Shown here: in pieces, positions 12,145-26,061 of the stretch
Position numbering within the stretch: position 1 is the first letter of the stretch
Layout: each line of letters begins with the position of its first letter
DNA from: an uncultured archaeon
Lineage (GTDB): Archaea > Thermoplasmatota > Penumbrarchaeia > JASLWR01
NCBI GenBank assembly: GCA_964342815.1
Contig: CAYFHS010000012.1
Location: forward strand, 1 to 64,000
Direction of reading: 5' to 3'
Length of the DNA: 64,000 nt
Position numbers and translations under genes: made by a program
The notes under the pieces: generated by a model
Told to the model about the DNA's origin: nothing
What the model saw: only the letters and a program-made list of their open reading frames with translations
Database searches by the model: none

Positions 12145-12168
12145 ATTATTTTTTCTACAAGAAGATAA

Positions 12169-12568
12169 GCTTGGAAGAAAAAGATACAAAATGCAGGGAT
12201 CACGATTAAATAAAACAATTTAATCTTAATCACGAATTTCCTTGAAATTCGCTCAAAGCCAAGCTTGGCCAATAGCGTTGTAACCTTCGCTAACGCTCGG
12301 GTCCCAACTCACTTCCGAACAAGGGTGTTCGGAATCGGGACCCGTCGGCCACGCTTGGAAGAAAAAGAAACAAAATGCAGGGATCACGATTAAATAAAAC
12401 AATTTAATCTTAATCACTAATTTCCTTGAAATTCGCTCATAGCTAAGCTTGGCCAATAACGTTGTAACCTTCGCTAATGCTCAGGTCACAACTGACTGCC
12501 GAACAAGTTTGTTCGAAAGCGGGATCCGTCGGCCACGCTTGGAAGAAAAAGAAACAAAATGCAGGGAT
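12169..12568 (+). repeat. Tandem 184-bp repeat (2 full copies plus a partial third running into tRNA-Leu), rich in inverted repeats
   Basis: GCTTGGAAGAAAAAGA begins at 12169, 12353 and 12537, an exact 184-bp period. Copies are highly similar with scattered substitutions. Confidence 0.95.
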
Positions 12569-12678
12569 AGCCAAGCTTGGCCAACGGCGCAGGACTTAAG
12601 ATCGTAGTCAAAAAAGGGTGTACTGCGCTGGGACATCCTGTCCTTAGTGGTTCGTGGGTTCAAATCCCACTCCCTGCA
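12561..12678 (+). tRNA. tRNA-Leu(TAA) with a 34-nt intron at 37/38 (intron 12601-12634)
   Basis: Acceptor GCAGGGA/TCCCTGC+A. Anticodon arm CAGGA-CTTAAG^A-TCCTG after intron removal. Variable arm present, T-arm GTGGGTTCAAATCCCAC. BHB-like fold CTTA/TGGG. Confidence 0.93.
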
Positions 12679-12800
12679 TCATTTTTTTACCGTAGGGGAA
12701 AAAATGGGCAGGTGCAGGAGAGCCCGAACAGGACTCTGGATCATGATGAGCACTTGTACTTTTTTCAAAAAAAGCACAACTATATCAATAATAATAACTT

Positions 12801-25837: not shown

Positions 25838-26061
25838 GGGTCCGTAGCTCAGCTAGGTAAGACGTTCATTGCAACTCGGCATTAATGTAACATTACAATA
25901 ACTATCAATATCTGCGTAGTTTAGATGTGCTTCCGGCCCTTTCCTGTAAATGGGCCGTAACAATTGTAGTTTTGCCGAAATCAGGGACTGGGAACGTTTC
26001 TAGAAAGAGCATCTGGCTTTTAACCAGATGGCCGGGGGTTCGAATCCCCTCGGACCCGCCA
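25838..26061 (+). tRNA. tRNA-Lys(TTT) with a 147-nt non-canonical intron at 20/21 (intron 25859-26005); CCA encoded
   Basis: Joining 25838-25858 to 26006-26061 gives GGGTCCGTAGCTCAGCTAGGTAGAGCATCTGGCTTTTAACCAGATGGCCGGGGGTTCGAATCCCCTCGGACCCGCCA, a complete cloverleaf. The junctions form a bulge-helix motif. Confidence 0.93.

Follow-up and report, generated by a model that had tools for sequence, protein, structure and literature searches.

Tandem units of tRNA 5' copies and structured cassettes upstream of a tRNA-Leu(UAA) gene in an uncultured archaeon

Introduction

Transfer RNA (tRNA) genes of archaea can be bordered by integrated elements, interrupted by introns in the D-arm or split into separate pieces, and the locus described here shares features with each of these systems. 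It lies on contig C12 (CAYFHS010000012.1) of G000, an archaeal metagenome-assembled genome (MAG; 4.35 Mb, 89% complete, 45% G+C); positions 1 to 64,000 of this contig were analysed and are called the window below. Directly 5' of the intact tRNA-Leu(UAA) gene stand two tandem units, each of which combines a copy of the leader and of the first 24 nt of the tRNA gene with a structured cassette. All features of the array are on the plus strand. A literature search returned no description of this architecture.

Integrated archaeal elements are among the closest counterparts. Integrases of the pTN3 type use the 5' half of tRNA-Leu (PMC8371274), and in Caldiarchaeum subterraneum a 5' fragment of tRNA-Thr occurs together with a 1.8-kb insert that bears a recombinase gene (PMC3293823). 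These systems resemble the array in the dead 5' copy upstream, the intact gene rebuilt downstream with a replaced leader, the tRNA-Leu target and the possible tandem accretion. In contrast, the units reported here carry an insert of ~80-250 nt devoid of an open reading frame (ORF) or integrase remnant, and their boundary lies in the D-loop, not in the anticodon loop. In addition, their cassette occurs at several tRNA species and has a conserved three-way junction with a closing strand (anti-D) that matches each host.

A second comparison concerns introns. Non-canonical bulge-helix-bulge (BHB) introns in the D-arm of archaeal tRNAs, and translocatable introns of Thermoproteales, were reportedly described by Fujishima and colleagues in 2010. 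D-arm BHB introns, as covered by a census of Asgard archaea (preprint 10.64898/2026.10.13.758758), share with the cassette the D-loop site, the pairing of the 3' end with the upstream part of the tRNA and the presence of related copies at more than one tRNA species; the route by which inserts of this kind arrive is still an open question. The cassette differs from them in lacking the 4-bp central helix with two 3-nt bulges and in that a leader and another copy of the 5' part, not a 3' exon, come after it, the tRNA being supplied by the intact downstream gene. The 5' halves of the split tRNAs of Nanoarchaeum equitans and Caldivirga maquilingensis (PMC3218864, PMC4390854) are likewise stand-alone 5' pieces with a structured trailer. 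Here, however, the trailer folds onto its own piece, no separate 3' half was seen and a complete gene adjoins.

Integron attC sites have paired RYYYAAC/GTTRRRY ends, a neighbouring intI gene and gene cassettes. They are similar to the units in that the fold and not the sequence is conserved, in a length of 85-100 nt, in paired terminal strands with AAC/GTT-like cores (found in Leu copies, not in Ser copies), in a branched and variable top and in the apparent preference for one strand. Unlike attC sites, the units have no gene cassettes, no integrase was seen beside them, the GTT triplet is not fixed and each unit brings its own copy of the start of its target.

Organization of the array

Tandem Repeats Finder (TRF) reported at 12169-12568 a repeat with a period of 184, 2.2 copies, 93% matches and a score of 695, and a three-way alignment displayed every part that an initial annotation had listed for its 184-bp repeats built from tRNA-Leu 5' fragments. 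A unit starts with a leader of 24 nt, continues with tRNA nt 1-8 and a two-hairpin insert of 56 nt, and ends with tRNA nt 9-24 and a cassette of ~85 nt; the dead copies of nt 1-8 and 9-24 are together referred to as the stub. As annotated, the third copy of the repeat leads into the real tRNA gene, which matches the Rfam tRNA model (RF00005) at 12561-12678 with 43.5 bits (E 1e-07).

Unit 1 begins with leader copy 1 (12169-12192, delimited by TRF and the alignment), regarded as native sequence because the sister species G001 has a similar leader; it differs by one base from copies 2 and 3 in the alignment. Next come a dead copy of tRNA nt 1-8, the acceptor 5' strand (12193-12200, identical to 12561-12568), the insert with its two predicted hairpins (12201-12256), and a dead copy of tRNA nt 9-24, comprising the D-stem 5' strand and the D-loop (12257-12272, identical to 12569-12584). 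The cassette core (12273-12346) scored 85.9 bits with R1, a covariance model of the shared core, and 48.1 bits over 12262-12358 with R2, a second model that includes the closing helix P1. According to the fold, the core is composed of hairpin P2 (12277-12308), a linker, hairpin P4 (12313-12334) and a C-rich joiner (12335-12346); a further helix, 12298-12305 with 12337-12344, is specific to this unit. The anti-D strand, GGCCACGCTTGG (12347-12358), is the 3' strand of P1 and pairs at 11 of 12 positions with the 5' strand at 12259-12270, such that P1 forms between the D-loop copy and the closing strand around two hairpin arms.

The closing strand had been described as a near reverse complement of the D-arm. 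It does pair in this manner; the D-arm segment is a 12-nt palindrome, and the near reverse complement is therefore also a near direct copy. Moreover, the final 6 nt of anti-D (GCTTGG) are the opening 6 nt of leader copy 2, so that half of the strand is leader sequence, a point overlooked in the initial annotation. An 8-nt sequence, AAGCTTGG, is common to the leader and the D-loop at the repeat junction.

Unit 2 (12353-12536) is 93% identical to unit 1 and scored 82.9 bits with R1 and 39.8 bits with R2. By alignment it consists of leader copy 2 (12353-12376), nt 1-8 (12377-12384), the insert (12385-12440), nt 9-24 with one C>T change (12441-12456) and the cassette (12457-12536), with the anti-D strand, again GGCCACGCTTGG, at 12531-12542. 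Counted by eye in the alignment, 11 differences fall within the ~84-nt cassette and about four within ~100 nt of leader, stub and insert; the two cassettes are 87% identical over 77 nt (BLAST). Folding agreed with the annotated hairpin cassettes, the D-copy plus cassette reaching -50.0 kcal/mol (z -5.7) in unit 1 and -38.1 (z -3.7) in unit 2. The stems that had been listed are all present in unit 1 but partly specific to it, CGGGTCCC/GGGACCCG being broken in unit 2. Two neighbouring P4 pairs and the helix specific to unit 1 are also broken in unit 2; one change in its P2 restores a consensus pair. Neither the alignment nor the folds gave any compensatory change between the two units of the window, a test that the initial annotation had proposed for copy 2; the stem changes are disruptive, and covariation appears only across the family. 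On these grounds unit 2 is a decaying copy.

The possibility of an assembly artefact, raised as a potential refutation, was ruled out by the reads. Run X1 yielded two separate 168-nt contigs that correspond to the unit-1 and unit-2 variants with zero mismatches and with depths like those of the flanks. Contigs from X3 and X5 (depth ~3) span unit 1 and the tRNA, not the unit-2-specific part, and were not counted as a one-unit allele. RNA run X9 had zero cover on the units and is uninformative on expression.

Leader copy 3 (12537-12560) lies directly 5' of the real gene. Its sequence lacks a TATA-like box at the usual distance, that is, at about -45 to -28, where clean tRNA genes of G000 have one, and no T5 run occurs on the sense strand anywhere in the array. 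Native upstream sequence is limited to an AT-rich spacer (12146-12168) after the stop codon of an acyl-CoA dehydrogenase gene; this spacer probably holds the T-run terminator of that gene and/or a putative promoter of the tRNA gene. In G001 the orthologous spacer is likewise T-rich and stands directly 5' of the tRNA.

A family of cassettes with a covarying fold

The family model comprises 86 positions and 26 pairs. Its consensus contains P2, P4, the joiner CGGNNCCCG and anti-D, the last of which closes a three-way junction together with the D-loop of the dead copy. P1 measures 9-12 bp with at most one mismatch, and the junction lies beyond it. Over 30 distinct copies, drawn from ten genera, pairing in the three helices reached 91.8% of cells and 22 of the 26 pairs had changed on both sides (158 cells), figures that are generous given an alignment fitted to the model and the relatedness of the sequences (a 10-sequence version was also computed). 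Pairing reached at most 49% in slid controls, in which the partner was shifted by 1-3 columns.

P1 follows the D-loop of the host, GGTCAA occurring with TTGACC and GGCCAA with TTGGCC. The pattern nonetheless persists in pairs read directly from the sequences: at the orthologous Leu(CAG) gene, CCTGG/CCAGG in G001 corresponds to CCAGG/CCTGG in G003, and three pairs of P4 differ between G000/G001 and G003, each on both sides. The joiner and anti-D are also complementary to the D-arm of the real tRNA, over ~13 nt and through a CGG that the stub lacks. They are predicted to bind the real tRNA better than their own decoy at 26 of 26 loci, by 2.6-12 kcal/mol. Mismatches on the sense strand comprise 22 A.C against 9 G.U cells, and the antisense fold is the more stable one in 23 of 29 copies (unit 1: -58.1 antisense, -50.0 sense); as the copies are related, this bias suggests, at most, that the antisense strand is favoured.

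Position and distribution of the cassettes

The inspected copies of the cassette with enough flank were all on the tRNA strand, 15-60 nt 5' of the tRNA gene or of the next unit, and all stood behind a stub that ends in the D-loop. Their host genes were Leu(UAA, CAG, GAG) and Ser(UGA, GCU), hence class II tRNAs only. Orientation was identical in all ~32 copies, by which an invertible switch between anti-D and the real D-loop was ruled out. The number of copies per locus ranged from 1 to 3 and the duplicated upstream part from 4 to >70 nt; inserts measured 80-250 nt at all loci seen. The same polarity holds throughout G000, where 5' tRNA pieces occur upstream only and 3' pieces downstream only (reverse controls, 0/43).

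Searches for further tRNA loci, as the initial annotation had proposed, were successful in G000. A 12-mer scan detected the same cassette upstream of tRNA-Leu(CAG) on C5 in three units, the second and third of which are decaying, and a repeat search detected at tRNA-Val(GAC) on C20 a copy of the first 23 nt of the tRNA followed by a 225-nt hairpin cassette with a related module. The cassette of the window is closest to that of Val(GAC) (78% over 58 nt) and is an outlier of the family, with an identity of at most 0.52 to the R2 set. Matches above E 1e-4 in G000 were tRNA loci and one site at a contig end; the cassette was present at only 2 of ~10 Leu/Ser genes. The 56-nt insert is confined to this locus: blastn-short gave no second copy in the 4.35-Mb genome.

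Among 37 genomes of this marine class of Thermoplasmatota, R2 had matches in 17, namely 4/4 of family f1, to which the window belongs, and 13/24 of f7; it found no cassette in seven of the nine families. Of 185,579 species genomes scanned for an exact pattern, only three had a match, all of them Thermoplasmatota or uncultured-archaeon MAGs. The relatives with the same element were deposited as marine Thermoplasmatota MAGs.

Elsewhere, stubs have lost their acceptor part or gained inserts at the position that is occupied in the window. Two other genera provide examples: at the Leu(UAA) gene of G008 (L029, C104), the dead 5' copy is split between acceptor strand and D-arm by a two-hairpin insert after GCAGGGGTAGC, at nearly the same position as here, and L048 (G026 C103) is split at this place by a 17-nt insert. 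The stub position between acceptor strand and D-arm therefore seems to take up insertions repeatedly.

Other tRNA genes of G000 have cassettes of different kinds. Nine genes that start with GGGCC (on C2, C3, C13, C14, C24, C28, C29, C39 and C42) are preceded by hairpins whose stem duplicates the acceptor stem (GGGCCYGT ... ACGGGCCCA); a common spacer that starts with TTGYTCACTC comes next. These hairpins constitute a second cassette family, in which a copy of the tRNA end is locked in a helix. On the 3' side, tRNA-Ser(UGA) on C25 (L004) and tRNA-Val(UAC) on C29 (L005) are followed by a common cassette of ~110 nt, then by a second copy of the segment from T-loop to 3' end and only then by the T-run terminator, in mirror order to the 5' units. 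A dispersed repeat of ~65 nt with a TTCTATT/AATAGAA hairpin, present on at least five contigs of G000 (C13:86390, C14:76789, C18:31406, C20:32317 and C71:3424), is unrelated to the tRNA cassettes.

Gain, loss and exchange between loci

Empty alleles had been suggested as a further object of search. G001 has the same order of dehydrogenase, tRNA-Leu(UAA) and S10 genes and the same tRNA intron, with zero units in between, and units are also absent before tRNA-Leu(UAA) in G002 and G003. Identity is 85-88% between the flanking genes of G000 and G001 but 93% between the two units, by which the tandem duplication probably postdates the split of the two species. A family member is present at Leu(UAA) in G009, and a different cassette in G008. 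Across genera, the cassette interiors of orthologous loci have identities of 0.82-0.95, but in G009, G018 and G020 a cassette has its nearest neighbour at a different tRNA gene of its own genome. Both vertical descent and exchange between loci thus occur.

The tRNA-Leu(UAA) gene and other tRNA genes of the window

ARAGORN recovered the tRNA-Leu(UAA) gene when introns were allowed, with exon 1 at ~12561-12600, an intron at ~12601-12634 and exon 2 at ~12635-12678. The intron of ~34 nt in the anticodon loop, because of which default ARAGORN missed the gene, had escaped the initial annotation and is shared by the orthologues in G001, G002 and G003. No further tRNA-Leu(UAA) gene was found in the MAG. 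Another intron-mode call, on C18 with a 417-nt intron, was dismissed as a false positive. Downstream of the gene, 12690-12775 holds a degenerate unit that begins and finishes like the tRNA and precedes a second T-run, apparently a counterpart of the upstream units on the 3' side, weakly defined here. It is unique in the genome; the orthologous units after the genes of G001 (L026) and G003 (L027) are clearer.

The window also contains the sole tRNA-Lys(UUU) gene of the MAG (25838-26061), which has a D-loop intron of ~146 nt. Its motif is a relaxed BHB with a CTAGG/TCTAG helix, TAA and AAA bulges and an inner helix of 7 bp. Default ARAGORN mis-called this gene as one of 78 nt (25984-26061) with a false 5' part.

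Origin of the units and alternative explanations

The reading that we favour, albeit tentatively, is that the units are a small non-autonomous cassette, anchored on homology to the 5' part of the tRNA, spread by recombination and co-transcribed as a leader. Entry or spread would take place by recombination inside the common segment of leader and tRNA nt 1-24, either through Campbell-type 'ends-in' homologous recombination or by means of some recombinase acting in trans. Such an event would duplicate the leader and nt 1-24 and keep the intact gene distal; recombination in the leader-plus-stub would therefore account for the duplication, the distal intact gene and the strict polarity. Unequal crossing-over between the repeats may then lead to arrays, here of two units, and recombination between them may remove an array scarlessly, as the allele of the sister species may show. 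Since a T5 run on the sense strand and a good TATA box ahead of the gene are both lacking, the array is probably transcribed with the tRNA; it would represent a leader of up to ~390 nt on the tRNA transcript, to be removed by RNase P. P1 would have an insulating role, in which the decoy D-loop holds anti-D off the real D-arm, and the changes in unit 2 and the 56-nt insert may be later, neutral events in a part that is not needed for the tRNA.

Several observations weigh against this reading. P2 and P4 keep their pairing through many compensatory changes, also between orthologues (Leu(CAG) of G000/G001 against G003 and Leu(GAG) of G016 against G026), which points to selection on the fold, whereas a passive hitch-hiker needs no conserved hairpins. 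The predicted stronger pairing of joiner and anti-D with the real tRNA at 26 of 26 loci is not needed for an insulating role, and a sense leader RNA does not predict mismatches that favour the antisense strand; both observations remain without explanation in the favoured reading. The units could be linked to no recombinase, nor did a free or autonomous form turn up. Finally, the allele of G001 is compatible with gain of the first unit in G000 as well as with scarless loss in G001.

The initial annotation had offered two readings. In one, a small element targets the 5' end of the tRNA and multiplies there in tandem; in the other, a structured leader transcribed together with the tRNA could pair with the D-arm. 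These are the two leading explanations now, each with partial support: the former from the family members at other tRNA genes, the copy number of 1-3, the empty site in the sister species and the alike cassettes at different loci of one genome, the latter from the ~13-nt complementarity to the real D-arm, computed for all 26 loci.

As to the latter, the three-way junction may be a functional, cis-acting leader RNA of class II pre-tRNAs, a serious rival that we nevertheless consider unlikely. Anti-D would pair either with the decoy or, more strongly, with the real D-arm and so gate folding, RNase P processing or modification, and the stub would exist since such a switch needs a decoy. This agrees with the strong covariation of each of the three helices, seen also when orthologous loci are compared across genera, with the constant location on the tRNA strand at a short distance, with the preference for the real tRNA (26/26 loci, 2.6-12 kcal/mol) and with the retention of the D-loop copy where the acceptor part of the stub may decay. 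A leader RNA of this kind is, however, difficult to reconcile with the patchy occurrence: the cassette is present at 2 of ~10 Leu/Ser genes in G000, is absent from the Leu(UAA) gene of the sister species, G002 and G003, and was not found in seven of the nine families of the class. The copy number of 1-3, the spacer of 15-60 nt, the decay of unit 2 here and of units 2 and 3 at Leu(CAG), and the mismatch asymmetry in favour of the opposite strand likewise speak against it.

Also unlikely is a reading in which the cassette is a new kind of tRNA-guided structured element. The conserved joiner and anti-D would then be a guide that pairs with the D-arm, in class II tRNAs or in the genes for them, and would either direct structure-specific recombination of a folded single strand or act as an RNA switch.

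It is improbable that the units are scars or miniatures of integrative elements whose tyrosine recombinase attaches at the 5' part of the tRNA, the stub being attL and the rebuilt gene attR, with the cassette as an element remnant or as a cis-mobilisable mini-element served in trans. The direct repeats of the tRNA 5' part (leader and nt 1-24, three times), the intact gene rebuilt distally and the one-base difference of leader copy 1 from copies 2 and 3 would fit, and there are precedents: 5'-half attachment sites in tRNA-Leu, with archaeal sites that can reach the D-loop (review PMC8371274), and a 5' tRNA fragment that lies 1.8 kb ahead of its gene, the interval holding a recombinase gene (Sugahara et al., PMC3293823). 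G000 encodes four tyrosine recombinases, one of them just 3' of tRNA-Thr, but none near these loci. Nor does any unit contain an ORF or integrase remnant, no larger element with these ends was present among ~36 matches, and the duplicated upstream part varies from 4 to >70 nt without a fixed core. One cassette occurs at >=5 tRNA species with an anti-D adapted to each, and it is the fold, not the sequence, that is conserved. The recombinase gene next to tRNA-Thr(UGU) (C26:51794-52829, ~470 nt downstream) is in itself the usual sign of an element integrated at the 3' end of a tRNA gene.

Still less probable is a function of the other strand, either as an antisense RNA that starts divergently at the tRNA promoter or as folded single-stranded DNA that serves as an attC-like recombination site. 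The excess of A.C over G.U mismatches on the sense strand (22 vs 9), the better antisense folding in 23 of 29 copies and the values for unit 1 (-58.1 antisense, -50.0 sense) point in this direction, and the junction of stub and cassette lies after GGTCAA or GGCCAA, anti-D beginning with G|TTGACC. We take these ends to resemble the integron core sites RYYYAA|C and G|TTRRRY. On the other hand, the counts are phylogenetically non-independent, and the GTT triplet is not fixed, the Ser copies having CA|C and G|TG instead. Cassette ORFs are lacking, no adjacent integrase was seen, and an antisense T5 run occurs at each leader of the window but not at the other loci.

The direct/inverted/direct layout of the D-loop is very unlikely to be a by-product of template switching during replication of a palindromic, heavily transcribed tRNA gene. 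The D-loops of these Leu and Ser tRNAs are palindromic or nearly so (12 nt in the window), the D-loop occurs three times in the order expected, and leader and D-loop share AAGCTTGG at the repeat junction. Yet the homology of P2, P4 and the joiner extends over five tRNA species and ten genera, and none of the three is copied from local sequence; copying errors that arose independently would not remake the same cassette.

Least probable of all, truncated intron-bearing genes (a D-loop intron with its 5' exon) or split-tRNA 5' halves would draw on the real D-loop intron of tRNA-Lys(UUU) in the same window, on a cassette at the same tRNA position whose 3' end pairs with the last part of the 5' exon, and on AAACGG after anti-D at Leu(CAG), which is like a 3' splice bulge with the first bases of a 3' exon, but P1 has 9-12 bp and not a 4-bp helix between two 3-nt bulges, P2 is not stacked as an intron helix, a 3' exon follows 0 of ~32 copies, the intact gene is always present and a 3' half gene with a complementary leader is neither needed nor seen. 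A working BHB intron was ruled out by the length of P1 and by the spacer, leader and second 5' copy that follow the cassettes, and a split tRNA half by the adjoining intact gene and a trailer that pairs with its own stub.

Further candidates were rejected on direct grounds. Many stop codons interrupt each of the six reading frames of 12146-12700 and no ORF was found across the units, so that a coding remnant of a split integrase is ruled out. Against Rfam 15, 12169-12560 gave nothing better than E 0.35, and only the tRNA model passes in array and gene; a C/D-box or H/ACA guide RNA was discarded given this chance-level snoRNA match and the lack of visible box motifs. Neither the Y1 HUH transposase (PF01797) nor reverse transcriptase (PF00078) had a match in the 89%-complete MAG, controls being positive, hence hairpins of the IS200/IS605 or REP-RAYT type and a retro-element, respectively, do not apply. 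A miniature inverted-repeat transposable element or another derivative of an insertion sequence was rejected because copies stand only before tRNA genes, with duplications of 24-100 nt. Degeneration from the rest of the tRNA or its intron was rejected as well, the only common sequence being AAGGGTGT in a single loop, which is not conserved in the family.

Implications

The family is defined by a covarying model that can be searched in other archaea. For annotation, both the stubs and the D-loop intron of tRNA-Lys mislead standard tRNA finders. Should the cassette be a guide element, it would be a self-targeting mobile cassette without an enzyme of its own, a folded single strand that recombines into the D-loop, or alternatively an RNA switch acting on the maturation of tRNA-Leu and tRNA-Ser; in both cases it would offer a concrete route by which archaeal tRNA genes acquire interruptions of the D-arm. 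The origin of interruptions in archaeal tRNA genes is unsettled. The locus presents a young and polymorphic insertion at the D-loop position of a tRNA, paired with the upstream tRNA part and homologous across tRNA species, which is tolerated because the start of the gene is duplicated. Deletion of the second leader-plus-stub would leave an insert in the D-arm, and units of this kind are therefore plausible raw material for non-canonical introns and tRNA fragments.

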